From positions 1 to 61,819 of the forward strand of contig CASGEB010000009.1 of NCBI GenBank assembly GCA_949300375.1: a DNA stretch of 61,819 nt. The letters run 5' to 3'. The notes under the pieces are model-generated. The model was not told where the DNA came from. It ran no database searches and was given only the letters and a program-made list of their open reading frames with translations. This document shows positions 8,505 through 43,525 of this stretch, piece by piece (position 1 is the stretch's first letter; every line of letters starts with the position of its first letter). The position numbers were made by a program, and so were the translations under genes. Origin of the DNA: an uncultured Pseudomonadota bacterium (GTDB taxonomy: Bacteria; Pseudomonadota; Alphaproteobacteria; RF32; CAG-239).

Positions 8505-8567
8505 TAGCCAAAATCCTCCCCCTGTTTTTCAATAATGCTTGACACACAAGCTTTGCTGTGTTATAGT
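8505..8567 (+). promoter_or_regulatory. Conserved cassette promoter, copy 1 (sigma70-like plus upstream boxes)
   Basis: GCCAAAAT at 8507, TTTTCA at 8526, TTGACA 8539-8544, 17-bp spacer, TATAGT 8562-8567. Confidence 0.8.
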
Positions 8568-8636
8568 AATCTTGATGTTGTTCCGAGGAGTTGTTTCGGA
8601 GCGGCATCCACATCTCCTGCTGTCTCCGGATGTTTT

Positions 8637-8980
8637 GTTTTAATGGTCATCCTCGGGCGGCTGGTTTTAATGGTCATCCCCGGGCGGCTGGTTACTTTAC
8701 GGTCATCCCCGGGCTTGACCCGGGGATCCACAGGCAACGGCAGGGGTTGTGAATAACATAACACCCGTCATTGCCGGACTTGCCCTGCTCGGCAGAGTTG
8801 GTGAATGGCAAAGGACTTTAAAAGCATTGTCATCCTCGGGGCGGCTTGTTTTAATTGTCATCCCCGGGCTGCGACCCGGGGATCCAAATGAACAATAAAG
8901 CCTTATGATTGACCTGGATTCTCGGATCACACCCTCAGGGTGACGCCAAGTGGATTGCCGGGTCAAGCCCGGCAATGACA
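8637..8980. repeat. Cluster of GTCAT...ATCCA REP-like palindromes and half-units in the cassette leader
   Basis: Full units at 8702-8730, 8857-8886 and inverted 8951-8980; variant at 8915-8946; 27-bp tandem half-units gttttaatggtcatcc[t/c]cgggcggctg at 8637-8690. Confidence 0.85.
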
Positions 8981-9015
8981 TAAGAAAAGAATTTTTATAA
9001 GGGAGGAGACCGAAA

Positions 9016-10512
9016 ATGAAAAACACTATGCTACACATGAAACTAAACGCTGCGGTGTCGGTATTTTCCATCGCCGCCGCTTTCTCGGTCTTTCTCCCAG
9101 CCTCTAATGCCTATGGTGGAATCTGTTTCTTGCCCGACTGTAATTTAGACTTACCATCATATGACGATGTCAACTCAGATTCTTCCTGGTGTCTGGACAA
9201 CGGTTATTACTTCTCTTGTCCGGACGGAACCTCTCCTGATTATTCTCAAACCTGCCCGCGTGATGAGAGTTATACCAAATGTTCTGCCGAACAATGGTGC
9301 AAAGACCAAGGATATGACAAAACAGAAGAATATTGCCGAAGTTTGGGAGACACCTGGTATGCCGACAAGGACACCAAATGTCCGAATGGTCAGAATTTAT
9401 ATAAAGAATGTGTCGAAGACACCGCCCAGGCCTGTGAGGACAAAGGTTATGTCAACAACTGTTCCCGTCCCGACAAGACCGAACTCTGCGAATGGAACTC
9501 TTCCTTTGCAAAATGCTGCAACGACACCGAATCAAACGGATGTCCCGAGAACTCGAAAGTTTCCGGCTGTGAAAACGGCACGATTGTCGGACAGGACACC
9601 TGCGGTTATGACTGTCATCAATGTTGTCAAACCTCCTGTCCGGCCGGTTATGCCTATACCGATGAACAAACTTCCGGCGGCACAAGCGGATATATCAAAG
9701 ACGGGGATGATTACTGTCTGCATTGCACGCGCGGAAAACTATATAAACGGAAAGAAAACCCCTGCACCGGTTATGACCTCTGCTCCGGTTATGGCGGGGT
9801 TGATAACGGGGACTATTGCTACACAGGTAACACAAAAAAATACTCAAAATGCCGCGAAGAATGTTTGCCGGGATATATTGAATGGTGCGACGCGCCGATA
9901 ACCGATTGCGAAAAGTTGGGATACAAAAAAACAGTTTCTCAATGCAACGGAAAATTTTCTTTCACCTGTCCGTTTAACAAAGACAAAGTTTTCTGCGCGG
10001 ATGATTGCAGCTATACTTTCACGGCATCTGACTGTGCCAGCCAAAACAAAAATATTGGTTCACAATCATGCACTCGAAACGGGACAACCTATTATGCCTC
10101 TTGTGGAACGACTTGCACAAACGGAAACTGTACATCCACACCTTCACAATCAGAATGCAACTACGTCTATTTGGCGTCAGATTGCGCCAACCAATGCAAA
10201 GATGTTGGGAGCAAATCATGTACCCGTGATGGAAAAACTTACTATGAAAGCTGTGGCAACACCAAATGTGCTGAAGACAAGCTCTGCAATGATAAAGGAA
10301 GCTGTATTACGCCATGGTACGGATATTGCTGCGATGATGTAGGATCCTGTGATACAACATTTTGCAAAGCATATAATTATCCGGATTGCAGCGATGTCAT
10401 AAACAGCTGTAAAAGCTTGGGAAGAACACCGAAATTTGACCGCTGTACCCAATCAGCCTCTGCTCATGTTGCAATATATACATGTGAAAAAGAATACCAA
10501 TGCTACATCTAA
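9016..10512 (+). CDS. Secreted cysteine-rich modular protein (long N-region + A + B + B + C modules)
   Basis: RBS gggagg at 9001; hydrophobic signal peptide ending ASNAYG; dense Cys; paralogue of 41518-42777. Confidence 0.9.
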   Translation: MKNTMLHMKLNAAVSVFSIAAAFSVFLPASNAYGGICFLPDCNLDLPSYDDVNSDSSWCLDNGYYFSCPDGTSPDYSQTCPRDESYTKCSAEQWCKDQGYDKTEEYCRSLGDTWYADKDTKCPNGQNLYKECVEDTAQACEDKGYVNNCSRPDKTELCEWNSSFAKCCNDTESNGCPENSKVSGCENGTIVGQDTCGYDCHQCCQTSCPAGYAYTDEQTSGGTSGYIKDGDDYCLHCTRGKLYKRKENPCTGYDLCSGYGGVDNGDYCYTGNTKKYSKCREECLPGYIEWCDAPITDCEKLGYKKTVSQCNGKFSFTCPFNKDKVFCADDCSYTFTASDCASQNKNIGSQSCTRNGTTYYASCGTTCTNGNCTSTPSQSECNYVYLASDCANQCKDVGSKSCTRDGKTYYESCGNTKCAEDKLCNDKGSCITPWYGYCCDDVGSCDTTFCKAYNYPDCSDVINSCKSLGRTPKFDRCTQSASAHVAIYTCEKEYQCYI

Positions 10513-10537
10513 ACCGGCATTCTATGGGAGAAAGATA

Positions 10538-11059
10538 ATGAAAAAAGACTTATTATCAGCTGCTATCGCTATATTAACCGTCACAACGGCTTCTAATGTC
10601 CGTGCAGCTTGTACTTCTACTCCGGACTGCAAATCTATGGGATACATTTACACTGTTGAAGAATGTTCCGGAAGTTATATAGCCTGCCCTTTTGATACCT
10701 CTAAAGTCTTTTGCTTTGACCCTTGTCTGTATACACTAAAGGCAGATAATTGCCCGGCATCACAAGGAAAAAGACCGGGTACACAATCTTGTATCAGAGG
10801 AGGAACAGTTTACTACGCAAATTGTGAAAATCTTTGTGATACTTTTGAAACCTATATTAATGGAACCTGTGTCCCAACAGTCTGCTGTGACAACACCAGT
10901 ACGTCAGAATATATTGATTCCGGCCTCTCCCTTTGTCGTAACACCTATAATTATCCGGACTGTACTTACCTTTTTGCCAGCTGCCGCAATGCTGGAGGAA
11001 CTGTTAAATACAATCACTGTATGCACCCTGGAATGGCCTCATTTAATTGTGAAAAATAA
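10538..11059 (+). CDS. Secreted cysteine-rich protein (A + B + divergent C)
   Basis: Start revised to MKKDLL (RBS gggag); signal peptide ending SNVRA; CTSTPDCKSMGY...ACPFD module; YPDC. Confidence 0.88.
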   Translation: MKKDLLSAAIAILTVTTASNVRAACTSTPDCKSMGYIYTVEECSGSYIACPFDTSKVFCFDPCLYTLKADNCPASQGKRPGTQSCIRGGTVYYANCENLCDTFETYINGTCVPTVCCDNTSTSEYIDSGLSLCRNTYNYPDCTYLFASCRNAGGTVKYNHCMHPGMASFNCEK

Positions 11060-11084: not shown

Positions 11085-11831
11085 ATGAAAAAAGGATTAC
11101 TATTAGGCTCTGTCGGAATATTAACCATTCTCGGAAACACAAAAATCCAAGCCGGATGCATTCCGACTAACGATTGTTCTTCTTTAGGATACAAATACAC
11201 TAAAGATGAATGTTCTGGGCAAGGGATTGCCTGCCCCTTCGACGCTGCCAAATATAATTGCGAAAACCCGTGTACATACAAGGTGAGCCTTTCCGACTGT
11301 TCATCCAAATGTTTAAATAATGGTACAAAATCATGCACAAGAAACGGAACAACCTACTACGAATCTTGTGGCGTTTCCAAATGTTCCAGCGGATATGAAT
11401 GTCAAAACGGAAAATGCGTAACAGCATGTACCTATACATATTCAGAATATATGTGCAGCCAGGAATGCAAATCGCCGGCCGGACGTTCTTGTACAAGAAA
11501 TGGTATAACGTTCTATGAAAGTTGCGGAAATTACAAATGCCCAAGCGGAAAAAAATGCTACGAGGGCAGTTGCTACACCCCCGTTCCGGTCGGCGAATAC
11601 TGCTGCGGATATGAAAACCAATGCGGATACAGCGGGGGAACAAGCAGTTCTTTCGATAGCAGATGTTACAGCATATACGGACAAAGTTGTTATCAAAAAT
11701 GCAGATCCATGGGATACCCTGATTGCACAGACTGGATACCAAGCTGCTATGCAACGGGAAATTCTCCCCAGAGAAAAGGATGCAGTTCTGACGGAAATGC
11801 AACAAACTATGCTATAAGCTGGTATTGTTAA
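11085..11831 (+). CDS. Secreted cysteine-rich protein (A + B + B + C)
   Basis: Start revised to MKKGLLLG (RBS aaggga); CIPTNDCSSLGY...ACPFD; two SCTRNGxTxYESC repeats; CCGY...YPDC. Confidence 0.9.
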   Translation: MKKGLLLGSVGILTILGNTKIQAGCIPTNDCSSLGYKYTKDECSGQGIACPFDAAKYNCENPCTYKVSLSDCSSKCLNNGTKSCTRNGTTYYESCGVSKCSSGYECQNGKCVTACTYTYSEYMCSQECKSPAGRSCTRNGITFYESCGNYKCPSGKKCYEGSCYTPVPVGEYCCGYENQCGYSGGTSSSFDSRCYSIYGQSCYQKCRSMGYPDCTDWIPSCYATGNSPQRKGCSSDGNATNYAISWYC

Positions 11832-11874: not shown

Positions 11875-14058
11875 TTACATAAAGGAATACGGATCAATAT
11901 CCACTTCCACCCGCACGCCTGACGGAATCTTTACCTTTGCCAGCCAGTCGCGGATAACATCTTGGATTTTGATACTTTTTGACGTTTTCAACAGCAGCCG
12001 GAACCGAAATTTGTTGCGCAGCATAAAAATCGGCGCCGGCGCCGGCCCCAACGTCGTAATATACTCATTATTCGGCGCCACATTCCCGAGCCAGACCGCC
12101 AAACGTTCGGCTGTTTCCTGATTTGTCCCCGACACAATCAGCGCTGCTAATTTGCCGAACGGCGGCATTTTCAATATCTTCCGGCTTTGCTTTTCCAGTT
12201 TCAAAAACTCCTGCCGGTCATTATTGATTAACGCCTTTAAAACCGCATTTTCCGGATAAAGGGTCTGCACATAAACCGTTCCTTTTTTCTCTCCGCGCCC
12301 GGCCCGTCCGGAAACCTGCGAAAGCAGCTGATAAGTCTGCTCCGAAGCCCGAAGGTCGCTGCCCATCAGCCCCAAATCGGCATCCACAATGCCGACTAAA
12401 GTCAATGCCGGAAAATGGTGTCCTTTGGCCAAAATCTGCGTTCCGATAAGAATATCAACCAGCCCCTGCTCCATTTCTTTAATAACCGCTGAAACCTCGG
12501 CCATACTGGATGTAATATCGCTTGAGATAATTTTGACCCGCGCTGTCGGAAAGCGTGCTTTCACCTCTTCGGCAATCCGCTCCACCCCGGGGCCGCAGGC
12601 TGTCAGCCCTTCTTCAGAATGGCATTCCGGACATTCCTTTGGCATCGGCATGGAAAAACCGCAATGATGGCAAATCAGTTTTTTTTGCAAACGGTGTTCC
12701 GTTAACCAAGACGTACAATTCGGACATTGAATCCGATGCCCGCAATCCCGGCAGATGGTCAGCGGAGCATAACCGCGCCGGTTCAAAAACAACATTGATT
12801 GTTCGTTTTTATCCAGATTTTCCTTCAAAGCCGCAACCAGGCTCGGAGACAACCATGAAACGCCCCAGCTTCCTTTGACCGGCTTGTCTTTCTTCAAATC
12901 AACAACCTTAATTTCCGGCAGCTGCGCTGCGGCAAAACGGCTGGTCAGTTTCACACAGTCATATTTTCCTTCTTCAACATTATTGATTGTTTCCAAAGAC
13001 GGCGTCGCCGTTGACAGGATAATCGGAAAATTCTCAAACTTCGCCCGGACAACCGCCATATCCCGTCCCTGATAATTGACGACGTCTTCCTGCTTAAAAG
13101 AATGGTCATGACATTCGTCAACCACAATCAGCCCCAGATTTTTATAGGGCAAAAACAAGGCCGAACGCGCCCCGATCAACACCTGCGCCCTGCCGTCCGC
13201 CGCCGCTTTCCAGGTTTCGAGCCGTTCCCTGCTGCCAAGCGCCGAATGCCACTTGGCCGGCATAACGCCGAAACGTCGTTCAAAACGTCCGAGCCATTGT
13301 GTCGTCAAAGAAATTTCCGGCACCATAATCAAAACCTGTTTTCCTTGCCGGACAGTTTCCGCCACTGCTTCAAAATAAACTTCCGTTTTTCCGGAACCGG
13401 TTACGCCGTCCAACAAAGTTGCGGAAAACCCGTTGCCGACTTTTGACAACAACATTTCTGCCGCCGCTTGCTGTTCCTGCGTCAGGCTTACTTTTCCAAA
13501 ATCGGGAAGAGGACGCGCAAACACCCATTTGTCTTCCACTTCCACCGGCTCCAACACTCCGGCCTCTATCAATTTATTCACAACCGGCATTGTTACGCCG
13601 GCGCCTTTACAGATATCCGACCGGCTGAACGGCGCAAATTTTAAAAAATCCATCACCCGCCAGCGCGCATCGGAATTTTTGATTTTAGCCTCTGCCAGCG
13701 TTTTGCCGGAAAGTCTATAAAGCAGCAAAGTCTTCGGATCTTCAAACACGCCGCGCACGCTCAAAACCATTTTGAGCACCAAACCGGTAAAAGCCATATT
13801 ATATTGCGCCACAAAATCGACAAACTTTCTCAACGCGGCAGACAAGGGCGGAAAAGCATATTTCTCATTGACTGATTTGATTTTGGCATTGTCCAAACCG
13901 CAAGATTTGCCGATTTTCCAAACAACGCCTATAACCTGCTCGTGGCCAAACGGAACCCGGACAATATCGCCGATTCCGACATCATCCGCCGCCAGATAGT
14001 CAAAAACATTATTAAACGGCAGGGTCAGCATAACCCCGACAATTTTTCCCAAATTCAC
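11875..14058 (-). CDS. priA: Primosomal protein N'
   Basis: GVTGSGKTEVY, DECHD, four CxxC zinc motifs, QVSGRAGR, DIDPYSFM. Confidence 0.97.
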   Translation of the reverse strand: MNLGKIVGVMLTLPFNNVFDYLAADDVGIGDIVRVPFGHEQVIGVVWKIGKSCGLDNAKIKSVNEKYAFPPLSAALRKFVDFVAQYNMAFTGLVLKMVLSVRGVFEDPKTLLLYRLSGKTLAEAKIKNSDARWRVMDFLKFAPFSRSDICKGAGVTMPVVNKLIEAGVLEPVEVEDKWVFARPLPDFGKVSLTQEQQAAAEMLLSKVGNGFSATLLDGVTGSGKTEVYFEAVAETVRQGKQVLIMVPEISLTTQWLGRFERRFGVMPAKWHSALGSRERLETWKAAADGRAQVLIGARSALFLPYKNLGLIVVDECHDHSFKQEDVVNYQGRDMAVVRAKFENFPIILSTATPSLETINNVEEGKYDCVKLTSRFAAAQLPEIKVVDLKKDKPVKGSWGVSWLSPSLVAALKENLDKNEQSMLFLNRRGYAPLTICRDCGHRIQCPNCTSWLTEHRLQKKLICHHCGFSMPMPKECPECHSEEGLTACGPGVERIAEEVKARFPTARVKIISSDITSSMAEVSAVIKEMEQGLVDILIGTQILAKGHHFPALTLVGIVDADLGLMGSDLRASEQTYQLLSQVSGRAGRGEKKGTVYVQTLYPENAVLKALINNDRQEFLKLEKQSRKILKMPPFGKLAALIVSGTNQETAERLAVWLGNVAPNNEYITTLGPAPAPIFMLRNKFRFRLLLKTSKSIKIQDVIRDWLAKVKIPSGVRVEVDIDPYSFM

Positions 14059-14297
14059 CGCCTCCGGATTCTTTCAAACTTTTTCCATCATATCAAAAGC
14101 CATATAAAATAAAATAAAATTTTAAAATGCCCACAACAGAAAAATAATAAAAATTTCAAACAAGCCGGATAGTGTTAAATATGATAATACAGAAGAAATA
14201 TCTTCTTTTGAAATTTAATTTACATTGGCAATTTATTCTTTCTATACTCTGCCTATCTTTACCAAATAATTACCTTTTGAATTTACAATAAAACACT

Positions 14298-15239
14298 ATG
14301 AAAAGCGAAATCACATATCAGACAGACGAAGAAACTGCCGCCCTTATAAAAAAATGGAAAAACTGGCTGCAGAATGAACGCTGCTACTCGCCCAATACAC
14401 TTGACGGCTATTGCCGCGACTTATCAGATTTCTTCGTTTTTTTGCATAAAAGACTCAACCGGATTCCGAATCTGACTGTGCTGCAGGAAATTGACGTCCG
14501 AACGTTCCGCGGCTATATTTCTGCCCGGGCGGAAAGGCGGCTAAACAAAACAACAATAGCCCGCAATATCTCTACTTTAAAAAATTTCTTCCGCTGGTTG
14601 GACGATAACGGCATCATCAAAAATCCGGCATTAAGCGTTATTTCGTCTCCCAAACTTCCCAAAGCCCTTCCAAAAGCTCTGGACATCGGAGAAACGTTCA
14701 AAATTCTCAACAAAGCTGGAAACTACGCTAAAAATGAATGGCAGGGAGTTCGGGATACGGCCGTTTTTACATTGCTGTACGGTTGCGGTCTGCGTATCTC
14801 CGAAGCCTTGTCGCTAAATTTCGGCGACATCACCCGTCAGGCAAAAGTGGTACGCATCAGAGGTAAAGGTAATAAAGAAAGAATTGTGCCTCTGCTACCT
14901 GTTGTCATTGACGCGGTTGACGAATATCTTCAAAGCTGTCCCTACCAACTCAAAAAGGGCGAACCTTTATTTGTCGGCGCCCGCGGAGAAAGGCTGCTGC
15001 CCCGGATAATCCAAAGGCAGCTGCAAAAGATTCGGCTTGCATTGGGCCTGCCTGATTCTTTGACGCCCCATGCTCTGCGCCATTCTTTTGCCACTCACCT
15101 GTTGTCCGAGGGAACCGACCTGCGTTCGATTCAGGAACTGCTTGGACACAGTTCTCTGGCCACAACGCAAAGATACACCGATGTTCAAACCGAAACCCTC
15201 AAGAGAGAATATAAAAAAGCCGATTTGCTGGGAGATTAA
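14298..15239 (+). CDS. xerC: Tyrosine recombinase XerC
   Basis: LLYGCGLRISE, GKGNKER, TPHALRHSFATHLL, LLGHSSLATTQRYT; divergent from priA. Confidence 0.85.
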   Translation: MKSEITYQTDEETAALIKKWKNWLQNERCYSPNTLDGYCRDLSDFFVFLHKRLNRIPNLTVLQEIDVRTFRGYISARAERRLNKTTIARNISTLKNFFRWLDDNGIIKNPALSVISSPKLPKALPKALDIGETFKILNKAGNYAKNEWQGVRDTAVFTLLYGCGLRISEALSLNFGDITRQAKVVRIRGKGNKERIVPLLPVVIDAVDEYLQSCPYQLKKGEPLFVGARGERLLPRIIQRQLQKIRLALGLPDSLTPHALRHSFATHLLSEGTDLRSIQELLGHSSLATTQRYTDVQTETLKREYKKADLLGD

Positions 15240-15272
15240 AATCTGCCGGCAAAAGTTTTTCCGGCAACAAAC

Positions 15273-15307
15273 AAAAAAAGTACCGCCCTGTTCCGGCGGC
15301 ACTTTTT
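15273..15307. terminator. Bidirectional terminator between xerC and rpmG
   Basis: aaaaaagtaccgcc-ctgttcc-ggcggcacttttt. Confidence 0.65.
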
Positions 15308-15336
15308 CATTTCACTTACAAAACGCTCTAAAAAAA

Positions 15337-15504
15337 CTACTTCAGTTTTTTCTCAACAAACTCTTCGTGTTTTCTGGACTTCTTGTCATATTTTTTCAAA
15401 GTCAGTTTTTCCGGATGAGTTCTCGGATTTTTTTCAGCAAGAAAAAAAGTGCCTGTACCGGCCGTGCTTTCCATTTTTACTAAAACTTTAATTGCTTTTG
15501 CCAT
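15337..15504 (-). CDS. rpmG: 50S ribosomal protein L33
   Basis: My own translation (below the ORF-track cutoff): MAKAIKVLVKMESTAGTGTFFLAEKNPRTHPEKLTLKKYDKKSRKHEEFVEKKLK*. Confidence 0.93.
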   Translation of the reverse strand: MAKAIKVLVKMESTAGTGTFFLAEKNPRTHPEKLTLKKYDKKSRKHEEFVEKKLK

Positions 15505-15585
15505 TTTCTTTACTCTTAAAAGGTTACAAATTTAAAAACATTTGACTGCACTATACATTTTTTTAGCGCAATGTCAACAACAATT

Positions 15586-16683
15586 TCATAATTTTTTATA
15601 AATCAACGCTTTGGCAACCAAAAAGTCAAAAGGTTCATTTTCTCTTTGCTGACGCGGACAATCAGCAGCTTTTTGTTGATTGGCAACAAACTCGGGTTTT
15701 TGCCCCTCTCCCATAAACGCCGTACAAATGTCCGGAATCAAACCGCTTTTTGCCACCGGTGCGCCGGAAGGCCCGAAAAGCGCCGCTGTCGTCAAAGACA
15801 AGCGGGAGCCGTTCTCCAAATCCGACAATGTCTGCACCGTTCCTTTACCATAAGTCCGCGTTCCGACAAGCTCAGCCCGCCCTTGTTCCTGCAAACTCAA
15901 AGCCAAAACCTCGGCCGAAGAAGCAGTATCGGCATCAACAAGAACAACCAAAGGTTTTTGAGTCCACTCACCGCCGGACCGGGCATTATAAAACTTCTCC
16001 TCATTGTCAGCCACACTGTTGACCGACGCGATAATCCCGTCATCCAAAAACATATCGGCAATTTCAGACATCGCCGCCAACGACCCTCCGGAATTTCCCC
16101 GCAAATCCAAAACCATAGCGTCGGCATTTTTTTCGTTGGCCATCGCCTGACGCAGGAGAGACGGACTGTCTTTGTCAAAAACCTTAATTTTAATATGCAG
16201 CAGATTGCCCTTCCGATAAGCCGAAAAAGCCCGGTGGGGGATAAAAGCGCTATCGCCGGCCATATCCATGGCTTTATAATATTTGGAACCGTCATTCAAC
16301 GCAAGCGTCACAGCCGCCAGCATCTCGTCAGCAGCCTCAAAATCATGCAAAGAAATCTTCTCCGATATTTTTTTGACATCTTCCAACACTTCTTCTGCCA
16401 AAGCCGCCCAGCTTTCGGCTGTATCCTGTTCCGGCTTGCGCAGGCTCTTGGTCATTTTGCCGCCGTAATATACGGTAACGCGCCCGGCTTTCATACCGAA
16501 CTTCAGCCTGCCGTCCATATTCTGCAAGCCTTTAAGAGCCTCTTCCGTTATCCGTTCATAGCTTAAATGCTGAGGATTTTCTTCATGTATTTTTGCAAAA
16601 ACCGGCAGAAAAACGCCATAATCCGCTTTAACCGGAAATACCGCCGATAATCCCAAAATTAATGTAAAAATAAAACTGCGCAT
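15586..16683 (-). CDS. S41 family C-terminal processing peptidase-like protein, apparently without PDZ
   Basis: Signal peptide; LDLRGNSGG, TASSAE, GTRTYGKG. Confidence 0.85.
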   Translation of the reverse strand: MRSFIFTLILGLSAVFPVKADYGVFLPVFAKIHEENPQHLSYERITEEALKGLQNMDGRLKFGMKAGRVTVYYGGKMTKSLRKPEQDTAESWAALAEEVLEDVKKISEKISLHDFEAADEMLAAVTLALNDGSKYYKAMDMAGDSAFIPHRAFSAYRKGNLLHIKIKVFDKDSPSLLRQAMANEKNADAMVLDLRGNSGGSLAAMSEIADMFLDDGIIASVNSVADNEEKFYNARSGGEWTQKPLVVLVDADTASSAEVLALSLQEQGRAELVGTRTYGKGTVQTLSDLENGSRLSLTTAALFGPSGAPVAKSGLIPDICTAFMGEGQKPEFVANQQKAADCPRQQRENEPFDFLVAKALIYKKL

Positions 16684-16756
16684 CAGTCCCCGCTTTTTAT
16701 TGCCTTTGTTCTTATTCTGCCTCCGAAAAGCATTTTTGACAAGTCCGGCGCCAAAG

Positions 16757-18709
16757 TTATTCGTCGTAAAAACGAAAAGTCAGTCCGCCGGTTACCGGAT
16801 TAGCCTCCCGCAGCATCGCCTTAATCCTGTCGCCGAGTCGAAATTCCCGCTTGCTTCGCACTCCGGATAAAGAAAGCTTGTTTTCCGGCAAAATATAACG
16901 GTCATTCGGCAGCGTTTTCATAAGAATCAGCCCTTCGGCGCCGATGTCTTCAATCCGGACAAAAATCCCGGCACTGCTGAAACCGGTTATCACCACATCA
17001 AAAACCTGCCCTTGCGCCGGCTTGAGATACGCGGCCAGATAGCGCGACAACATTTCTCTTTCGGCATTGACGGCCTTACGCTCCGTTTCTGAAATATGAG
17101 CGCCGATGTCTTCAAACAGCTTGTTGTCGGCACGCTCATTCAACGCCCCTCCGTCAGGCAGTTTCAAAGCTTTAATCAGTGCTCTGTGAACCAGCAAATC
17201 TGCATACCGCCGGATCGGCGATGTAAAATGCACATAATCCTTCAGCCCCAATCCGAAATGCCCGATATTATGCGGACTATACACGGCCTGAGACTGCATC
17301 CGCAAAATCAAATCGCTGATGCCCGACTGCAGCCCCCGCTTTTCACAAGTCTCGGCAATTTTATTAAAATGCCCGGGCTTCAAGGCAGAAAGATCAGGAA
17401 GTTTCATTTTCAGTTCCCGCAGCAATCCTTCCAAATCCGGCAGCCTTTCCGCCCGCGGCTTGTCATGAATCCTATACATGACCGGTATTTTCTTTTTCTT
17501 CAAAGTCTGCGCCGCCGCAACATTTGCCGCAATCATAAACTCCTCGACAATCTTTTCGCTGAGCAGATGAGGGCATTTTTCCACAGACTTGACTGCGCCG
17601 GATTTGTCAAACCTGACTTTAAACTCATCGGTCTCCAGCTCCAGCGCTCCGCGTTTTTTCCGGGCTTTTGCCAAAGCCTGATAAGCCTCCCAAAGGGGCA
17701 TAATGACCGGATAAAAAAGCGGAGCCGTTTTATCGTTTCTGTTGCCGTCCAGCGCATTCTGTACTTCACTGTAAGTCAGCCTCTCGGCAGACCGGATAAC
17801 TGCCCGGTGAAAATTATGGCTCAGAATTTTCCCGTCATTGTCAATTTCAATAAAACAAGCCAGCACCGGACGTTTTTCGCGCGGCCGCAGCGAGCATAAA
17901 TCATTGCTCAAAACTTCCGGCAGCATCGGCACGACCATATCCGGCAAATAGACCGAATTTCCGCGCTTATAAGCCTCCCTGTCAAGTTCGGACAAATCCC
18001 GCACATAAAAGGCCACATCGGCAATCGCCACGCCGAGACGAAAACCGGTCGGCGTTTTTTCTGCCCAAACAGCATCGTCAAAATCTTTGGAATCATCTCC
18101 GTCAATCGTTACAAACGGCAGATTTGTCAAATCCAAACGCGCCGACGGATCAAAATCGGGCAGTTTTTTGACCTCTTTATTCGCCTTGTTCGAAAAAACA
18201 AACGGAATATCATACTTGTCCAACACCAAAACGGACGTTGCCTTATGAAGGTCAAACGGACCGATAACCCTGATGATGCGTGCAGTCTTAAACCTTTTGT
18301 CCCCTTCCAGAAAAAAGCTGACAAAATCGCCTTCTTTCAATCCCTTGCCGGAATTCAGCCAATATGTTTCACGCGAATTCTTTTCTGCGCTGACCACCAA
18401 CGCCTTTTCGCCATACTTTTCAATCACGCCGTAACGCTTTTCCACAAAATCATCTGCATTGCCGAGACGGGTAACCGGACGGGCTGAAAAAACGCCATGC
18501 AGATAAAACAATTTGGCCAAAACCACATCGCCCGGCATCAGCGCCGGTTTTATTCTTTTATTCGGCTGCACAAAAATCTCCGCCCCGGAAGGATTGTGCT
18601 TTTCACAAACAGTTCTGGCCAAAAGTTCTCCGTCTTCCGTTTCGCCGCAAATTTCAATTTTTATCAATTCCGGCAGCCGGCGTTTGCTTTTTTTAACTCT
18701 CTTAGCCAT
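16757..18709 (-). CDS. rnr: Ribonuclease R (RNB domain)
   Basis: TIDGDDSKDFDDA, EEFMIAAN, HFTSPIRRYADL, C-terminal S1 domain. Confidence 0.92.
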   Translation of the reverse strand: MAKRVKKSKRRLPELIKIEICGETEDGELLARTVCEKHNPSGAEIFVQPNKRIKPALMPGDVVLAKLFYLHGVFSARPVTRLGNADDFVEKRYGVIEKYGEKALVVSAEKNSRETYWLNSGKGLKEGDFVSFFLEGDKRFKTARIIRVIGPFDLHKATSVLVLDKYDIPFVFSNKANKEVKKLPDFDPSARLDLTNLPFVTIDGDDSKDFDDAVWAEKTPTGFRLGVAIADVAFYVRDLSELDREAYKRGNSVYLPDMVVPMLPEVLSNDLCSLRPREKRPVLACFIEIDNDGKILSHNFHRAVIRSAERLTYSEVQNALDGNRNDKTAPLFYPVIMPLWEAYQALAKARKKRGALELETDEFKVRFDKSGAVKSVEKCPHLLSEKIVEEFMIAANVAAAQTLKKKKIPVMYRIHDKPRAERLPDLEGLLRELKMKLPDLSALKPGHFNKIAETCEKRGLQSGISDLILRMQSQAVYSPHNIGHFGLGLKDYVHFTSPIRRYADLLVHRALIKALKLPDGGALNERADNKLFEDIGAHISETERKAVNAEREMLSRYLAAYLKPAQGQVFDVVITGFSSAGIFVRIEDIGAEGLILMKTLPNDRYILPENKLSLSGVRSKREFRLGDRIKAMLREANPVTGGLTFRFYDE

Positions 18710-19503
18710 CAGTTTTTCAACTCAACTATCAACGGCGTATGGTCGGACGGTTTGAAACTGCGTCTGGGGTTCTTGTCTACTTCGCAGAAAGACAACCGGT
18801 CGGCTGCTTGCGGCGAAAGCATCATATAATCGATTCGCATTCCGTTGTCCGCAAAAAAAGCCTGCCCGGCATAATCCCAAAACGTATAGCCTTTTTCCTG
18901 CGGATGCAAAAGCCGGAAAGCATCATAAAACCCAAGATACCTGATAGCCGTCAGTTTTTGCCGGACTTCTTCCCGGCACAAAGCATTATTCAAAAAAGCC
19001 TTCTCATCATACACGTCCCCTGCCGTCAAAATCACGTTAAAATCGCCTCCGAGCAAAACCGGACGGTTCAGCAGCAGCAAATCTTTTGCGTGCGCATACA
19101 AGGCGTCCATCCATTTGAGCTTATAAGCATATTTGCTGTCATCGTCAGGATTATTATACGGAGGATTCCCATTCGGCAAATAAAGCGACGCCGCACGCCA
19201 GACATCGCCGGCCGCTTCCGTTTCCACTTCCAGATACCGGGCTTGCTCATCTTTCAAACCGGGCAGCCCCTCTTCAATCACCTTTATCTTTTTTTTGGAA
19301 AGAACCGCAACGCCGTTATAGCTTTTCTGTCCGAGGATTGCCGCCTCATAACCGGCTGCCTGCAGTTCAAAAAAGGGAAAACCGTCATACTCGGTCTTAA
19401 TCTCCTGCAGCAAAACAATATCCGGACTTTTCTCTCTCAGCCAGCTGAGCAAATTCTCCATCCGGGCATTAATCGAATTTACGTTATAAGTTGCTGCAAT
19501 CAT
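18709..19503 (-). CDS. xth: Exodeoxyribonuclease III
   Basis: TYNVNSI, LQEIK, YNGVA, GDFN, RIDY, PSDH. Confidence 0.93.
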   Translation of the reverse strand: MIAATYNVNSINARMENLLSWLREKSPDIVLLQEIKTEYDGFPFFELQAAGYEAAILGQKSYNGVAVLSKKKIKVIEEGLPGLKDEQARYLEVETEAAGDVWRAASLYLPNGNPPYNNPDDDSKYAYKLKWMDALYAHAKDLLLLNRPVLLGGDFNVILTAGDVYDEKAFLNNALCREEVRQKLTAIRYLGFYDAFRLLHPQEKGYTFWDYAGQAFFADNGMRIDYMMLSPQAADRLSFCEVDKNPRRSFKPSDHTPLIVELKN

Positions 19504-19580
19504 CTCTTTTACCTTTTATTTAATCATTTTGCTTATACTCTTACAACGGATTTAAAATATTTTCAAGGAAAGATAATCTC

Positions 19581-20735: not shown

Positions 20736-20807
20736 GCTTTTGTTAAAAAATTATAAAGCTTTTATGATTATACTCAAAGTCAGACAATTACTTTAGGGAG
20801 ATAAAAA

Positions 20808-21764: not shown

Positions 21765-21768
21765 GCTT

Positions 21769-22425: not shown

Positions 22426-22435
22426 GGAGAAAAAT

Positions 22436-24786: not shown

Positions 24787-25386
24787 TTACTGACATACAT
24801 AATATGCATTGCCAAAATAACCATAGTAACTATCTCCTTCACAAAGCTGGAAAACAGGATTGCGGCCGGAAGCACGGCAGCTTGCATGCATATCGCTGCA
24901 ATCCGGATAACCGCGGTATCTGCATTGTTCATAACAGCTCCGGCCATAGTAGCTTTGACAATAACTGTCATTGGAATTTGAAGTTCCGCCATTATACCCG
25001 CATTCATAAACATATCCGCAACACCAGCCGCTTGCTGAAACAGAAGTAAAACACGTTCCGTTATAACAGCTTTGCCCGCTTGAGCATTTGGAAGAACCGC
25101 AGGAAGCGTAATAAGTTACGCCATTTCTGACGCAGGAGGAAGAGCCTGGGTTTTGGCAGTTAGCGGCGCAGGCCTCGGCGGTGTAGGTGTAATCGCAGGT
25201 CTGCGGGTCGAAACAAAAATATTTTGTTGTGTCAAACGGACATTTAACCCCGTCGTTCGGGCATTCATCGGCGGTATATTTATAACCCATTGCCTCACAG
25301 TCCGGGGTCTGGGTGCAGGCCGCTAAGACATAACCGGATGCAAGAGCGGTACAGCACAAGGCGCTCCAAAAAATATATTGTTTCAT
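24787..25386 (-). CDS. Secreted cysteine-rich protein (A + B + C)
   Basis: Start revised to MKQYIFW (RBS gggagagg); CTQTPDCEAMGY...KCPFD; SCVRNGVTYYASC; CCGY...GRSCYEQC...YPDC...YVCQ*. Confidence 0.9.
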   Translation of the reverse strand: MKQYIFWSALCCTALASGYVLAACTQTPDCEAMGYKYTADECPNDGVKCPFDTTKYFCFDPQTCDYTYTAEACAANCQNPGSSSCVRNGVTYYASCGSSKCSSGQSCYNGTCFTSVSASGWCCGYVYECGYNGGTSNSNDSYCQSYYGRSCYEQCRYRGYPDCSDMHASCRASGRNPVFQLCEGDSYYGYFGNAYYVCQ

Positions 25387-25420: not shown

Positions 25421-25482
25421 ACTATACCACACCTCAAACGAATAGTCAATATATAATGAAAAGTATGACGGGGATTTTGGCC
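25421..25482 (-). promoter_or_regulatory. Conserved cassette promoter, copy 2
   Basis: Minus strand: GCCAAAAT from 25481, TTTTCATTA, TTGACT 25449-25444, 17-bp spacer, TATAGT 25426-25421. Confidence 0.78.
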
Positions 25483-30388: not shown

Positions 30389-30405
30389 TTTTTCCTCCTC
30401 AGACA

Positions 30406-30437
30406 GTTTAGAGCAACTCGCCGAATTGCTCTAAACA
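30406..30437. other. Intergenic hairpin between bamA and lpxD
   Basis: gtttagagcaa-ctcgccgaa-ttgctctaaac, perfect 11-bp stem. Confidence 0.5.
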
Positions 30438-30451
30438 GTTTATTCTCAAAA

Positions 30452-38681: not shown

Positions 38682-41135
38682 ATGAAATTAGTTATTGTAG
38701 AATCTCCGGCCAAAGCCAAAACCATCAACAAATACCTTGGCAGCGATTATAAAGTTCTTGCCAGTTTCGGCCACATTCGCGACTTGCCGAGCAAAGACGG
38801 CTCCGTCAAACCGGACGAAGATTTTGCCATGAGCTGGGAATTAAGCCCCGGCGGCCAAAAACGCTTAAAAGACATCATTGATGCCGTCAAAGACGCCGAC
38901 ACGATAGTTCTCGCATCCGACCCGGATAGAGAAGGAGAAGCCATCGCCTGGCATATTCTGGAAGAATTGAAAAACCGCAAAAAAATCAAAGACAAAAAAA
39001 TTGAACGCGTTGTCTTTCACGAAATCACCAAACGCGCCGTTACGGAAGCTATCAAAAACCCGCGCCAGATTGACGACAACCTGGTTTCGGCCTATATGGC
39101 GCGCCGCGCTTTGGACTATCTCGTCGGCTTTACCTTGTCGCCGGTTTTATGGCGCAAACTCCCGGGCTCCAAATCTGCCGGACGCGTCCAGTCCGTTGCC
39201 CTGCGCCTGATTTGCGACCGCGAAACCGAGATTGAAAAGTTCAAACCGGAAGAATATTGGACAATCGACGTTGATCTGATTACCAAAACCCAGGCATTGA
39301 TAAAATCGCACCTGATGACGCTCGACGGCAAGAAGCTTGAAAAATTTGACATTAATACTGAAGAAAAAGCCCTTGCCGCCAAAGCCAAAATCGAGGCACA
39401 GGAGTTTAGCATCGCCAGCGTTGAACGCAAAAAAGCCAACCGTTATCCGGCACCGCCGTTCACAACTTCGACCCTGCAACAGGAAGCGGCCCGCAAATTG
39501 CGTTATTCGGCCAAAAAAACCATGCAGATTGCACAAAAGCTTTATGAAGCCGGTTTAATTACATATATGCGTACTGACGCGGTAAACCTTTCTCAGGAGG
39601 CCATTGCCGCCTGCCGCGAGGCTATCGTAAAATATTTTGGTGAGGCTTATCTGCCCAAAACAGCCAAAGAATACAAAACCAAGTCCAAAAACGCACAGGA
39701 AGCGCACGAAGCCATCCGTCCGTCCGACGTGATGAATACGCCGAAGAAAATGGAAACCAAGCTGGATTCCGATTCTCACAAACTGTATGAACTGATTTGG
39801 AAACGTACGGTTGCCTGCCAGATGAATCCGGCGGTTCTGAATAAGGTTACAATCGATTCGATTTCTGCCGACAAGCAAATCATCCTGCGCGCCAACGGAC
39901 AAGTCATCAATTTTGACGGATTCCTGAAACTGTATCAGGAAAGCAAAGACGACAGCGATGAAGACGATGAAAACCGCATTCTGCCGAATGTTGAAGAAGG
40001 CGAAAACGTCAACAAGGGAGAAATCACCACCGACCAGCATTTCACCACGCCGCCGCCGCGCTTTACTGAAGCCAGTCTGGTAAAAAAACTGGAAGAACTC
40101 GGCATCGGCCGTCCGTCGACTTACGCGACGATTATTTCCGTTCTGCAGGAGCGCAAATATGTCCGGGTCGAAAAACTGCGCTTTATTCCGGAAGACCGCG
40201 GGCGTATTGTTACCGTATTCCTGGAAAACTTTTTCAAAAAATATGTAGAATACGACTTTACGGCCCAACTGGAAGAATATCTGGATGACATCTCCGCCGG
40301 TGAAATGGAATGGAAAAAACTTCTGGGCGGTTTTTGGGCAAAATTCATTAAGACGGTTGAATCGGTTCAGCCGCTCCAAATTACCGAAGTCATCAACAAG
40401 ATTGACGAAGCGCTGTCTTTCCACCTCTTTCCGCCGCGTGAAGACGGCTCTGACCCGCGGGTCTGCCCGGAATGCGGCAAAGGCCGTCTGAGTATCAAAC
40501 TCGGCAAATTCGGCGCCTTTATCGGCTGCTCCAATTATCCGGAATGCAAATATACCAAACCGCTGGTCGATACCTCCGATGAAGAAGCTGCCGATTCGCA
40601 AAAGCCCAAATCCGGCGAGGATAAAGTTCTGGGCGAGCTGAACGGGATGAAAATTTACCTCAAAAAAGGCCCGTACGGATTTTATCTGCAACTGGGCGAA
40701 GACGCCACGGCCACAACCGAAAAGCCAAAACGTTCCGCCTTGCCAAAAAATCTGAGCCCGGAAGAAATCACGTATGAACAGGCGGCAACGTTATTAAGCC
40801 TGCCCAAACAGCTCGGCAACGGCATTGAGGTCAATATCGGAAAATTCGGCCCTTACATCAAACAGGGCGGAAAATCCAAATCGCTGACCGGCAATGACAA
40901 TATTTTCAATATTACGTTGGAACGGGCGGAAGAAATTTTGAAGAACGTTGCCGAACGTCCGGCCGGAAAAGTCATCGGACAACACCCGAAAGACAAAGCC
41001 GATATTACGTTGAATGTCGGACGTTACGGTCCGTATCTGAAATGGGGCAAAAACAACTATGCCCTGCCGAAAGCGCTAAAAGACAAAGAACCGACTTTGG
41101 AAGAAGCGCTCCAAATTATTAATGCAAAAAAATAA
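38682..41135 (+). CDS. topA: DNA topoisomerase I
   Basis: VESPAKAK, DPDREGE, GRVQS, ITYMRTD, one zinc ribbon and C-terminal GxFGPY repeats. Confidence 0.98.
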   Translation: MKLVIVESPAKAKTINKYLGSDYKVLASFGHIRDLPSKDGSVKPDEDFAMSWELSPGGQKRLKDIIDAVKDADTIVLASDPDREGEAIAWHILEELKNRKKIKDKKIERVVFHEITKRAVTEAIKNPRQIDDNLVSAYMARRALDYLVGFTLSPVLWRKLPGSKSAGRVQSVALRLICDRETEIEKFKPEEYWTIDVDLITKTQALIKSHLMTLDGKKLEKFDINTEEKALAAKAKIEAQEFSIASVERKKANRYPAPPFTTSTLQQEAARKLRYSAKKTMQIAQKLYEAGLITYMRTDAVNLSQEAIAACREAIVKYFGEAYLPKTAKEYKTKSKNAQEAHEAIRPSDVMNTPKKMETKLDSDSHKLYELIWKRTVACQMNPAVLNKVTIDSISADKQIILRANGQVINFDGFLKLYQESKDDSDEDDENRILPNVEEGENVNKGEITTDQHFTTPPPRFTEASLVKKLEELGIGRPSTYATIISVLQERKYVRVEKLRFIPEDRGRIVTVFLENFFKKYVEYDFTAQLEEYLDDISAGEMEWKKLLGGFWAKFIKTVESVQPLQITEVINKIDEALSFHLFPPREDGSDPRVCPECGKGRLSIKLGKFGAFIGCSNYPECKYTKPLVDTSDEEAADSQKPKSGEDKVLGELNGMKIYLKKGPYGFYLQLGEDATATTEKPKRSALPKNLSPEEITYEQAATLLSLPKQLGNGIEVNIGKFGPYIKQGGKSKSLTGNDNIFNITLERAEEILKNVAERPAGKVIGQHPKDKADITLNVGRYGPYLKWGKNNYALPKALKDKEPTLEEALQIINAKK

Positions 41136-41140: not shown

Positions 41141-41171
41141 AATCCCCGTTCTCCCGAACGGGGATTTCTTT
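41141..41171 (+). terminator. topA terminator
   Basis: aatccccgtt-ctcccg-aacggggatt followed by tcttt. Confidence 0.75.
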
Positions 41172-41177: not shown

Positions 41178-41240
41178 TAGCCAAAATACCACTCCAACTT
41201 TTCATTAATCATTGACACTGGCGTTTTGTTGTGGTATAGT
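41178..41240 (+). promoter_or_regulatory. Conserved cassette promoter, copy 3
   Basis: GCCAAAAT at 41180, TTTTCA at 41199, TTGACA 41212-41217, 17-bp spacer, TATAGT 41235-41240. Confidence 0.8.
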
Positions 41241-41517: not shown

Positions 41518-42777
41518 ATGAGAAATTATAACACTATGCTACACATGAAACTAAACGCTGCGGTGTCGGTATTTTCTATCGCCGCTGCTTTCTCGGTCTT
41601 CCTCCCGCCCTCTAATGCCTATGGAGGAGTCTGTTTTTTGCCTGACTGTAATCTGGACGGCACCTCTTTTGATGACGTCAACTCCGATTCTTCCTGGTGT
41701 ATTGATAATGGCTACTATTTCACCTGTCCCGAAGGCACGGCTCCTGATTATTCTCAGACCTGCCCGCGTGACGAGAGCTACACCAAATGTTCCTCCGAGC
41801 AATGGTGCATTGACAACGGTTACACCAAAACCGCTCAATCCTGTTATGACCTCGGGCCGACCTGGTTCCCGCAAAACCTCTGTCCAAAAGGCTTTGACCT
41901 CTACAAATCCTGTGTCGAAGACACCGCTCAGGCCTGTGAGGACAAAGGCTATGTCAACAACTGTTCCCGTCCCGACAAGACCGAGATTTGTGAATGGGAT
42001 TCTTCTTTTGCCAAATGCTGCAACGATACCGAATCAAACGGATGTCCCGAGAACTCGAAAGTCTCAGGCTGTGAAGACGGCACGATTGTCGGACAGGACA
42101 CCTGCGGTTATGACTGTCATCAATGTTGTCAGACCTCCTGTCCGGCCGGTTATGCCTATACCGATGAAGAAACCTCCGGCGGCACGAGCGGATATATCAA
42201 AGACATGGCGAATGAAGACGATTACTGTCTGCACTGCACACGCGGCAAACTGTATAAACGGAAAGAAAACCCCTGTACCGGTTATGACCTCTGTTCGACT
42301 TATGGCGGGGTTGATAACGGGGATTATTGTTATACGGGGAATACGAAGAAATATTCGAAATGTCTGACCGAATGCCGGCCGGGATATATAGAATGGTGCG
42401 ACACGCCGGTCACCGATTGTGAGAAACTGGGCTATACGCAGACGGCGGCGGAATGTGCGAACGTGCCGGCTGTCGCCTGCCCGTTCAACGGGGATAAGTG
42501 GTATTGTAAAGATTACAGCAATGTCCCGACGAGCGGGCGCTGTTGCGGATATATTAACGATTGCGGATACAACGGAGAAACATCAAGTTCTTATGATTCT
42601 AATTGTCAAAGTTATTATGGCAGAAGTTGTTATGAACAGTGCAAGAGTTATGGATTCCCTGATTGTCCTGATATGCAGGCGAGCTGTCGAGCCTCAGGCG
42701 GTACCCCGGTCTTCGATGGTTGCAACTACGACGGCTACCCCACCAACGACTACCTCGCCTACTTCCTCTGCCAGTAG
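41518..42777 (+). CDS. Secreted cysteine-rich modular protein (long N-region + A + C)
   Basis: RBS ggggaggag; signal peptide nearly identical to that of the 9016 gene; C-module CCGY...GRSCYEQC...PDC...FLCQ*. Confidence 0.9.
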   Translation: MRNYNTMLHMKLNAAVSVFSIAAAFSVFLPPSNAYGGVCFLPDCNLDGTSFDDVNSDSSWCIDNGYYFTCPEGTAPDYSQTCPRDESYTKCSSEQWCIDNGYTKTAQSCYDLGPTWFPQNLCPKGFDLYKSCVEDTAQACEDKGYVNNCSRPDKTEICEWDSSFAKCCNDTESNGCPENSKVSGCEDGTIVGQDTCGYDCHQCCQTSCPAGYAYTDEETSGGTSGYIKDMANEDDYCLHCTRGKLYKRKENPCTGYDLCSTYGGVDNGDYCYTGNTKKYSKCLTECRPGYIEWCDTPVTDCEKLGYTQTAAECANVPAVACPFNGDKWYCKDYSNVPTSGRCCGYINDCGYNGETSSSYDSNCQSYYGRSCYEQCKSYGFPDCPDMQASCRASGGTPVFDGCNYDGYPTNDYLAYFLCQ

Positions 42778-42788
42778 TCGTCTCTGCC

Positions 42789-43019
42789 TGTCATTGCCGG
42801 GGGATTTCTTCTTTTGTCATTCTCGGGCTGCGACCCGAGAATCCAGATAAAAAAGAAGCCATATGATTGACCTGGATCCCCGGGTCAAGCCCGGGGATGA
42901 CAAATAAAAAAAAAGAGCCCGGGGATGAAGAAAGAAAAAAGAGAACCAGGGGCTGAAAAAATAAAAAGGTGCTTAGGAATGACAAATAAAAAAGTGCTTG
43001 GGATAACAGAATAGAAAAC
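42789..43019. repeat. Inverted REP doublet plus tandem degenerate half-units
   Basis: Full units at 42816-42845 and inverted 42873-42902; half-units start at 42789, 42917, 42945, 42971 and 42996. Confidence 0.8.
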
Positions 43020-43042
43020 GGCAATTAAAAAGGAGAAAAGTT

Positions 43043-43483
43043 ATGAGAAAAGGAATGTTGATAACCGTGGCGGGGATGGCTTTGTTAGCCGGAACTGCCG
43101 ATGTCCGGGCCGCTTGTATTCCGACGCAGGACTGCGCCAGCCTCGGCTATAAATACACCGCCGCACAATGCCCCGACGGCGCCATCGCCTGCCCCGATGA
43201 CAGCGGCTCCACCACCCCAGACCCGGCTCCTTCCGTCCCGACAAGCGGATATTGCTGCGGGTATACGACTTATTGCGGATATAGTGGAGGAACGTCAAGT
43301 TATAGTGACTCAAGCTGTCGTAGTTATTGGGGTAGAAGTTGTTATGAACAATGCAAGAGTTATGGATACCCTGATTGTACTGATATGCACGCCCGTTGTC
43401 GAGCCTCCGGCGGTACCCCGGTCTTCCAGGGTTGCACCAAGGGCTACAACACCAACTTCGTCGCCCTCTTCGCGTGCCAGTAG
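43043..43483 (+). CDS. Secreted cysteine-rich protein (truncated A + Pro/Thr linker + C)
   Basis: RBS aaggag; signal peptide ending ADVRA; CIPTQDCASLGY; C-module ending FACQ*. Confidence 0.9.
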   Translation: MRKGMLITVAGMALLAGTADVRAACIPTQDCASLGYKYTAAQCPDGAIACPDDSGSTTPDPAPSVPTSGYCCGYTTYCGYSGGTSSYSDSSCRSYWGRSCYEQCKSYGYPDCTDMHARCRASGGTPVFQGCTKGYNTNFVALFACQ

Positions 43484-43495
43484 TCGTCTCTGCCT

Positions 43496-43525
43496 GTCAT
43501 TGCCGGGCTGCGACCCGGCAATCCA
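43496..43525. repeat. REP-like palindrome
   Basis: gtcattgccgggctgcgacccggcaatcca. Confidence 0.85.

Follow-up and report, generated by a model that had tools for sequence, protein, structure and literature searches.

The erp genes of Borrelia burgdorferi (OspE/F-related, marked by an 'upstream homology box') occupy many paralogous loci at which a conserved promoter/operator and leader are joined to diverse mature parts. An excerpt of PMC10016077 describes one promoter, leader and localisation sequence serving many diverse external sequences, which are co-expressed and several of which are host-binding adhesins. Here we describe a family of similar layout from an uncultured gut alphaproteobacterium, in contig CASGEB010000009.1 of assembly GCA_949300375.1 (61,819 nucleotides, all of which we analysed and refer to as the window). 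The window is contig 9 of the 57 contigs of a metagenome-assembled genome (MAG) of 1,641,518 bases and 98.9% completeness, called G000 here. It carries six complete genes for cysteine-rich proteins with signal peptides (fam1 to fam6 in order of position) at three loci, namely fam1 to fam3 at locus 1, fam4 at locus 2 and fam5 and fam6 at locus 3. An earlier sequence-only reading of this DNA had listed the six genes as a dispersed, co-regulated repertoire, and all of them are present with their coordinates confirmed. We propose that they belong to a lineage-specific superfamily, dispersed over the chromosome, whose exported, disulfide-rich modular proteins form a stable, co-regulated binding repertoire in uncultured gut Alphaproteobacteria, a proposal that we give about an even chance of being correct.

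Among the described systems that we compared, Borrelia Erp appears to be the closest architectural analogue. The common unit here would be the promoter, the signal peptide and module A (one of five protein modules, A to E), and the diverse part would be module C. Erp proteins are lipoproteins encoded on cp32 prophage plasmids, whereas the proteins described here have cleavage sites of the signal peptidase I type, are extremely rich in Cys and are encoded on the chromosome between housekeeping genes. No sequence homology between Erp proteins and the family was found, and the likeness is one of analogy only. Regulators of the erp genes are known, whereas a regulator of the present family is postulated.

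All three loci carry the arrangement GCCAAAAT-N11-TTTTCA-N7-TTGAC(A/T)-N17-TATAGT, with a TG before the −10 hexamer. This cassette has the predicted form of a σ70 promoter with an extended −10 element (TTGACA, 17 nucleotides, TGnTATAGT), in which the GCCAAAAT box lies at about −65 and the A/T-rich TTTTCA element at about −47. An independent scan with the σ70 consensus, scored over the 12 positions of the −35 and −10 hexamers, gave near-maximal matches at each locus (Table 1), in keeping with the fixed-spacing motif that the sequence-only reading had noticed there; a fourth copy near the right end of the window had escaped it. The GCCAAAAT box could be a regulator-binding site or a passive UP-like element for RNA polymerase.

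We searched for the cassette in G000 and in other genomes. The strict fixed-spacing pattern occurs 33 times in G000, 20 times before an open reading frame (ORF) of the family and 13 times at a contig end, and no copy was found ahead of any other kind of gene in this genome. A looser pattern gave 37 matches, 34 of which comprise the full cassette; 20 of these have a family ORF downstream on the same strand and 14 point at a contig end no more than about 500 nucleotides away. The other three matches (C1 12700, C7 55954 and C18 41022) lack the TTTTCA box and were set aside as chance. Five other species of the genus contain the strict pattern (30, 26, 22, 6 and 3 copies), but none of the 35 other genomes searched does, and a reversed-pattern control matched in none of the 41. 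In genomes G007 and G008, each of the six sampled sites that are followed by enough sequence lies ahead of a D-type Cys-rich gene with a signal peptide (one sampled region, L048, with 206 bases to the contig end, was left unscored). In the sister species G010, at least 13 of the 30 cassette sites coincide with family matches among the matches listed, as judged by comparing coordinates. The cassette is essentially exclusive to the family, being confined to it in G000 and travelling with it in other species, and these placements show every transcription unit of the family to be headed by this predicted promoter of its own. The enrichment upstream of family members that had been predicted from three loci thus extends over the genome.

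As expected of functional elements, the three boxes of the cassette hold constant from species to species and the spacers between them differ. In an alignment of the 33 copies its 5' edge is sharp: similarity begins at CTAGCCAAAAT, where the majority-base fraction goes from about 0.4 to 0.98. Upstream of this point the flanks are unrelated and often consist of the neighbouring gene's terminator, with small subsets of copies sharing a further 15–20 nucleotides. The downstream regions fall into two subtypes: genes that start with module D have leaders of 150–500 nucleotides full of hairpins resembling repetitive extragenic palindromic (REP) elements, and genes that start with module A have a short leader with a GGGAGAGG ribosome-binding site.

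To delimit the family itself, we built hidden Markov models (HMMs) of the five modules (D, A, B, C and E) iteratively from the window proteins against all ORFs of the genome. The models place combinations of D, A, B and C in all six complete genes, in agreement with the shared Cys-scaffold modules recognised in the sequence-only reading, and they identify 57 family ORF pieces in G000, which bears out its expectation of a genome-wide family. These pieces cover 2.31% of the genome, a lower bound because they are truncated at contig ends. Contig ends cut 34 of the 57 pieces, and of all 114 contig ends 36 have a family ORF within 1.5 kb, which makes the family an apparent main source of the fragmentation of the assembly. 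Architectures found genome-wide include D-A-B-B, D-A-C, A-B-C, A-B-B-C, A-C, D-E-E, D-E-B and E-B-C, and D-E also occurs on other contigs. The Cys-rich gene cut by the left edge of the window, which had also been remarked on earlier, consists of module E. Because module E is joined to D, B and C on other contigs, this gene belongs to the same superfamily.

The modules have regular Cys contents. Complete copies of module A have five Cys in 14 of 18 cases, and those of module B have eight in 20 of 24; the HMM core of module C has nine in 16 of 17 copies, plus one more Cys beside the C-terminus. Module B is a unit of roughly 50 residues that occurs in tandem, with two copies each in fam1 and fam3 and four each in the related proteins P0075 and P0076. 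Overall, Cys makes up about 10–13% of the mature proteins. In all six window proteins the N-terminus comprises a basic n-region followed by a hydrophobic core and a VxA or SxA site, and a Cys follows one or two residues after the site. The cleavage sites (VRA/AC, IQA/GC, VLA/AC and SNA/YGG) place R, Q, N or Y at −3 relative to this Cys in most members, and the leaders read as signal peptidase I type rather than as lipoboxes. Export across the inner membrane, as predicted from these leaders, is well founded.

Comparison with G010 revealed how stable these genes are. Contig 16 of G010 aligns collinearly with positions 9181–41251 of the window, the two being about 92% identical in DNA, and this contig likewise ends inside family loci on both sides. 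Fam1 to fam4 occupy the same positions in the two species, with ratios of nonsynonymous to synonymous substitution (dN/dS) of 0.09–0.23 (Table 1). In 19 of 20 flanking frames the ratio is 0.01–0.17, and the values for fam1 to fam4 lie within or just above this range. The twentieth frame (28862–30805, plus strand, 647 residues, dN/dS 1.81, dS 0.055, no Pfam match) was left out of the range as a probably spurious antisense ORF; it overlaps the minus-strand ORFs 28892–29332 and 29369–30388 downstream of bamA. Conserved position and low dN/dS indicate that fam1 to fam4 are stable orthologues under purifying selection. Together with the invariant Cys columns in an alignment of 40 A-B-C proteins, they show that the family genes are real and under constraint.

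Paralogues, in contrast to orthologues, differ from one another in a patchwork. The promoter and module D are common to fam1 and fam5 (82% identity over 938 nucleotides, 41–98% in individual 60-nucleotide blocks), but their sequences further 3' are unrelated; fam5 and fam6 share module C and the 3' flank (79% over 268 nucleotides). Between fam4 and a paralogue on contig C22, module A has a dN of 0 and a dS of 0.05, module B has a dS of 0.42, and in module C the synonymous sites are saturated, with a dN of 0.30 that reaches about 1 in an effectively unalignable tail. These comparisons support the recombinant mosaics proposed in the sequence-only reading. The 5' unit of promoter, leader peptide and module A is near-identical among some paralogues. 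Between the orthologues of fam4, the only gene with a C module that was profiled in 60-nucleotide blocks, conservation is higher in the C-terminal part than in the 5' part. Taken together, the alignments show module C to be old and specific to each paralogue. The simplest account would be that the promoter-leader-A(-B) unit evolves in concert by gene conversion and that domains are shuffled, while each C module is old and individually kept.

Table 1. Positions of family genes, promoter cassettes, REP-like units and associated features; coordinates refer to the window unless another contig is named, and dN/dS values compare each gene with its G010 orthologue.
Feature	Position	Strand	Description
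Left-edge fragment	2..562	+	3' remainder of a family gene truncated at the left contig end; 186 residues with 33 Cys; module E
Locus 1 cassette	8507..8567	+	GCCAAAAT box 8507-8514; TTTTCA 8526-8531; −35 TTGACA 8539-8544; 17-nucleotide spacer; TG and −10 TATAGT 8562-8567; 11/12 consensus positions
Locus 1 leader	8576..9015	+	Putative 440-nucleotide structured leader; three perfect REP-like units (8705-8727, 8860-8883, 8954-8976) and further half-sites
fam1	9016..10512	+	498 residues; signal peptide and D-A-B-B; dN/dS 0.13
fam2	10538..11059	+	Signal peptide and A-B-C' (C degenerate); starts 25 nucleotides after fam1; dN/dS 0.23
fam3	11085..11831	+	Signal peptide and A-B-B-C; starts 25 nucleotides after fam2; dN/dS 0.10
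fam4	24787..25386	-	199 residues; signal peptide and A-B-C; reference member, modelled; dN/dS 0.09
Locus 2 cassette	25421..25481	-	TTGACT-17-TATAGT; 10/12 consensus positions, TG present; short-leader, A-first subtype
Locus 3 cassette	41180..41240	+	Directly after the topA terminator hairpin (41141-41166); 11/12 consensus positions, TG present
fam5	41518..42777	+	Signal peptide and D-A-C
Two REP-like units	42819..42898		Between fam5 and fam6
fam6	43043..43483	+	146 residues; signal peptide, truncated A' (4 Cys) and C; without a promoter cassette of its own
REP-like unit	43499..43522		Just 3' of fam6
Fourth cassette	61708..61768	+	75 nucleotides from the right contig end and pointing off it; gene beyond the assembly break
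Type IVb-pilus-like cluster	G000 contig C11, about 12000-21900 (L049 2063-11924)		Holds the only detected secretin

We compared the proteins with known families and structures. None of the seven window proteins matched Pfam or NCBIfam at E ≤ 1, none of five matched PADLOC or PHROGs at E ≤ 0.01, no Rfam family matched within the window, and the ESM Atlas gave no usable match. Among 5.8 billion clustered proteins, we found 67 relatives of fam4 and 39 of module D, none with a precomputed Pfam domain; the few that are named are all 'hypothetical protein' from alphaproteobacterial MAGs. A profile of the 40 A-B-C proteins matched 623 of 1.84 billion representatives at E ≤ 1e-3 but only 20 at E ≤ 1e-30, and most of the weak matches cover the signal peptide and module A only. 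One distant relative of 3630 residues (P0111) has 17 stretches matching this profile. The literature searched contained no description of the family. As far as these searches go, no description exists of the protein modules, of the promoter cassette or of the carrier lineage, which agrees with the absence of a named family stated in the sequence-only reading. The type of system is known: it is a lineage-specific, expanded family of exported proteins with a common upstream region in a host-associated bacterium with a small genome.

AlphaFold2 yielded a single usable structure model, that of fam4, with a mean predicted local distance difference test score (pLDDT) of 76 and a predicted template modelling score (pTM) of 0.53. 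In this model, module B consists of small β-hairpins preceded by a helix, and module C combines three helices with a terminal β-hairpin. The model of module D, made from a 34-row alignment, was poor (mean pLDDT 50.2, pTM 0.33).

How might such a family work? The promoter, leader and module A could form a common cassette to express, export and scaffold each protein, homogenised by gene conversion, and module C, with its three helices and a β-hairpin that is hypervariable between paralogues, might serve as the head that determines specificity. On this view the cell would hold a stable set of binding proteins in its envelope or outside it, probably all produced at once and in large amounts. Each would recognise a ligand of its own in the gut, for which host mucus or glycans, host enzymes and other microbes are candidates, and covalent links between the proteins, or to a partner, may form through a conserved unpaired Cys. 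A bolder version of this proposal, which we consider possible but doubtful, holds that the modules form a disulfide-knotted superfamily of new fold; that at least 33 units are hard-wired into one regulon by a private cassette kept uniform by gene conversion; that combinatorial ligand-binding heads are displayed or released, with the free Cys as a tether; and that these are the organism's main interface with host mucus, host enzymes or microbes.

Binding seems the most likely function because C modules differ between paralogues yet are conserved between orthologues, because the hairpin is hypervariable between paralogues and because adhesin-type proteins elsewhere contain modules A and B. The last point comes from the Lcl_C domain (DUF1566, PF07603), named after the Legionella collagen-like adhesin Lcl, which an excerpt of PMC11162425 describes as an extracellular adhesin that binds glycosaminoglycans. 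When nine long relatives were scanned, Lcl_C scored above its cut-off in P0099 (56.2 bits against 34.9) and below it in P0096 and P0098. In these relatives the signal peptide, A and B are placed before the Lcl_C domains, which puts modules A and B in extracellular adhesin-type architectures and hints at a head on a stalk. Unlike in these distant relatives, the C-terminal position in the window proteins is held by the unrelated module C, and the Pfam scan detected no PF07603 domain in any of the seven.

Nevertheless, a number of observations weigh against a co-regulated binding repertoire at the cell surface. The fusions to Lcl_C were seen in distant relatives and not in G000, where the search was empty, although its control matched no genome either. 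Saturation of synonymous sites in module C means that positive selection on the 'head' is not demonstrable between paralogues, and the model of fam4 has no solved relative that might guide the assignment of function (Foldseek against the Protein Data Bank (PDB), best E 2.7). The cassette might drive strong constitutive transcription with the help of an UP-like element, and the near-identity of its copies could stem from recent duplication alone. No RNA run was found for positions 20800–28800 of the window. Searches of this 98.9% complete genome revealed neither DsbB nor VKOR, which leaves the re-oxidation of DsbA unexplained in a gut lumen that is itself largely anoxic. Nor did G000 yield a classical type II secretion system: its only detected secretin belongs to a type IVb-pilus-like cluster together with TcpQ, a PilO-like protein, a T2SSE-family ATPase and a T2SSF-family protein, and the proteins may therefore stay in the periplasm.

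The genome does encode two DsbA-like proteins. The number of Cys is odd in 36 of the 40 mature A-B-C proteins (most often 23 or, where module B is doubled, 31), and module A supplies the odd one. We take this as a lead that points to one conserved unpaired Cys that could form an intermolecular bond. A two-copy complex prediction of mature fam4 (residues 23–199) gave no verdict, with a score of 0.00 and no controls, and counts neither way.

An unpaired Cys would also suit a structural coat, in which abundant Cys-rich proteins polymerise by disulfide bonds in the periplasm or outer membrane and toughen the envelope, much as the Cys-rich outer membrane complex does in chlamydiae. Promoters near the consensus and about 33 transcription units suggest a high total output, and the lack of an identified export route across the outer membrane fits a periplasmic location. 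We nevertheless think a coat unlikely: a structural role leaves unexplained why there should be dozens of distinct C modules, apparently kept by orthologues (most clearly in fam4), the cell retains ordinary cell-wall machinery (RodA, PBP2 and BamA are all encoded in the window), and the Pfam searches revealed no homology to the chlamydial Cys-rich proteins.

Alternatively, the tandem disulfide-knotted modules, module B in particular, might inhibit host or microbial gut proteases in the manner of multi-Kazal or antistasin-type inhibitors. Like Kazal/follistatin and antistasin modules, module B is a small Cys-knot unit of about 50 residues in tandem arrays, and its spacing C-x7-C-x6-Y-x3-C-x4-C, present in four of the six window copies, partly resembles the Kazal signature C-x7-C-x6-Y-x3-C-x2,3-C. 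Sub-threshold matches are enriched for such domains. The sequence profile against PDB retrieved only haemadin (E 0.075), and a profile of module B alone gave six matches (E 1.3–9.1), three of them to Kazal/follistatin proteins (WFIKKN2, follistatin and FSTL1, at E 5.3–9.1). None of these matches is significant, and we regard the Kazal/follistatin ones as a weak lead rather than as evidence of membership. Kazal domains have six Cys and module B has eight, the Pfam Kazal models were unmatched at E ≤ 1, Foldseek retrieved no inhibitor fold, and the order of predicted secondary structure differs, since the helix of the modelled module B comes before the hairpins and not after them. As inhibition would also leave modules D, A, C and E unexplained, we find a protease-inhibitor arsenal distinctly unlikely.

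The sequence-only reading had compared the family to the variant surface proteins of protists. In the eukaryote Giardia, variant-specific surface proteins are expressed one at a time, and by analogy the loci might encode alternative Cys-rich surface coats, diversified by recombination, of which one or few are expressed for immune evasion. The likeness lies in a large Cys-rich exported family in a gut organism, and the family is indeed dispersed, its paralogues are mosaic, the C-terminal hairpin is hypervariable between them, the number of matches (with a single query) ranges from 5 to 43 among species of the genus, and the record titles indicate a host-associated organism. Variation of this kind is not what the loci display, however. 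Fam1 to fam4 are syntenic with a species that is about 92% identical and are under purifying selection, and the postulated switching finds no counterpart either: every locus has a complete promoter predicted to be strong, which leaves neither promoterless silent cassettes nor a single expression site, and the 33 aligned copies show no conserved sequence upstream of the cassette from which an invertible element could be built. In 14 identical copies, the short runs of C and of T within the cassette do not differ in length. In further contrast to the Giardia proteins, no recurrent CXXC motif, membrane anchor or conserved cytoplasmic tail is visible in the six window proteins. This is the reading most weakened by the data, and we consider a variant-antigen repertoire improbable; judged by its loci, the family is not an antigenic-variation system of the switching type. 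The other expectations of the sequence-only reading fared better, in that the proteins map to no characterised family, the copy number is not both low and invariant and the promoter is enriched upstream of family members.

It is very improbable that copy number reflects the self-propagation of a mobile or recombination-prone cassette of promoter, gene and REP unit rather than benefit to the host, because the sharp 5' boundary beside unrelated flanks, the concentration of REP-like units near family ORFs and the position of the loci among unrelated housekeeping genes are offset by the absence of any transposase or integrase with the loci in the window, by the positional stability of loci and purifying selection on genes between species, by subsets of copies whose similarity extends further upstream, as from ordinary duplication, and by the REP-like units that lie away from the family.

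The REP-like repeat itself proved to be only partly specific to the family. In the window 0.27 matches to its half-site would be expected and 14 occur, a count that none of 100 shuffled sequences reached. The sequence-only reading had confined the repeat to two loci of the window; this holds for all six perfect hairpin units, which lie in loci 1 and 3, but for only 11 of the 14 half-site matches, and genome-wide the repeat is not exclusive to the family. Of the 88 units in G000, 33 lie within 700 nucleotides of a family ORF (5% of the genome), 31 are near contig ends only and 24 are elsewhere. Like the REP repeats of Proteobacteria, these units are multi-copy intergenic palindromes of 23–24 nucleotides that are clustered and occur in both orientations; unlike them, they show a strong preference for the leaders and 3' flanks of a single gene family. 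Each has a perfect 9-nucleotide stem and a loop of 5–6 nucleotides. The stem has three variants, ATCCCCGGG (48 units), ATTCTCGGG (20) and ATTGCCGGG (19), which covary perfectly and are found in either orientation of the loop, implying that selection acts on the hairpin itself. The putative leader of locus 1, whose start is placed from the −10 hexamer, has a minimum free energy of −186.5 kcal/mol, which is considerably more stable than shuffled sequences (z = −5.03). Possible roles of the hairpins include transcript stabilisation, attenuation or serving as a substrate for recombination.

These results bear on organisms beyond the one examined here. Record titles place related loci in gut MAGs of human, mouse and deer, and record titles together with a run label place the carriers in gut metagenomes of these hosts and of chicken; if the bolder version of our proposal is true, the heads are displayed on, or released from, gut Alphaproteobacteria that include human-gut lineages. 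The carriers are uncultured, gut-dwelling Alphaproteobacteria with small genomes, and their largest paralogous family is wholly unannotated. The proportion of cut pieces in G000 (34 of 57) is also a practical warning that short-read MAGs systematically truncate the genes of this family; the promoter cassette and the five module profiles give annotators the means to recognise it. With roughly 150–500 residues, the proteins are compact experimental targets for which oxidising hosts could serve as expression systems. Should the modules prove to be new disulfide-rich folds, the small set of bacterial Cys-knot scaffolds would grow, and should the C-terminal modules be binding heads, it is probably through this family that the organism chiefly contacts its host. 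The family also offers a clean natural case in which promoter and leader evolve in concert while the payload diverges.

Some further observations concern individual loci. The spacing of fam1, fam2 and fam3 suggests that they apparently form a three-gene operon; locus 1 lies between atpH and priA, and locus 3 between topA and rodA. The two genes flanking fam4, at 23885–24322 (plus strand) and 25544–26419 (minus strand), have no Pfam match at E ≤ 1e-5 and are kept in G010 (dN/dS 0.12 and 0.04). The database gene calls for three A-first relatives of fam4 (P0008–P0010) carry about 35–50 extra N-terminal residues that read through the conserved promoter and leader, and the TTG-started ORF 24787–25491 of the window has the same N-terminal over-extension. 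One candidate 'RNA?' run (X1, 9% of sampled words) turned out to consist of contigs, probably DNA, of a relative about 92% identical, and is mute on expression. Lastly, topA (38682–41135, plus strand), which adjoins locus 3, is 98.5% identical to its G010 orthologue with a dS of 0.067, far above the identity of the other collinear genes (about 90–94%, dS 0.2–0.76), which suggests a recent homologous exchange of topA between the two species.

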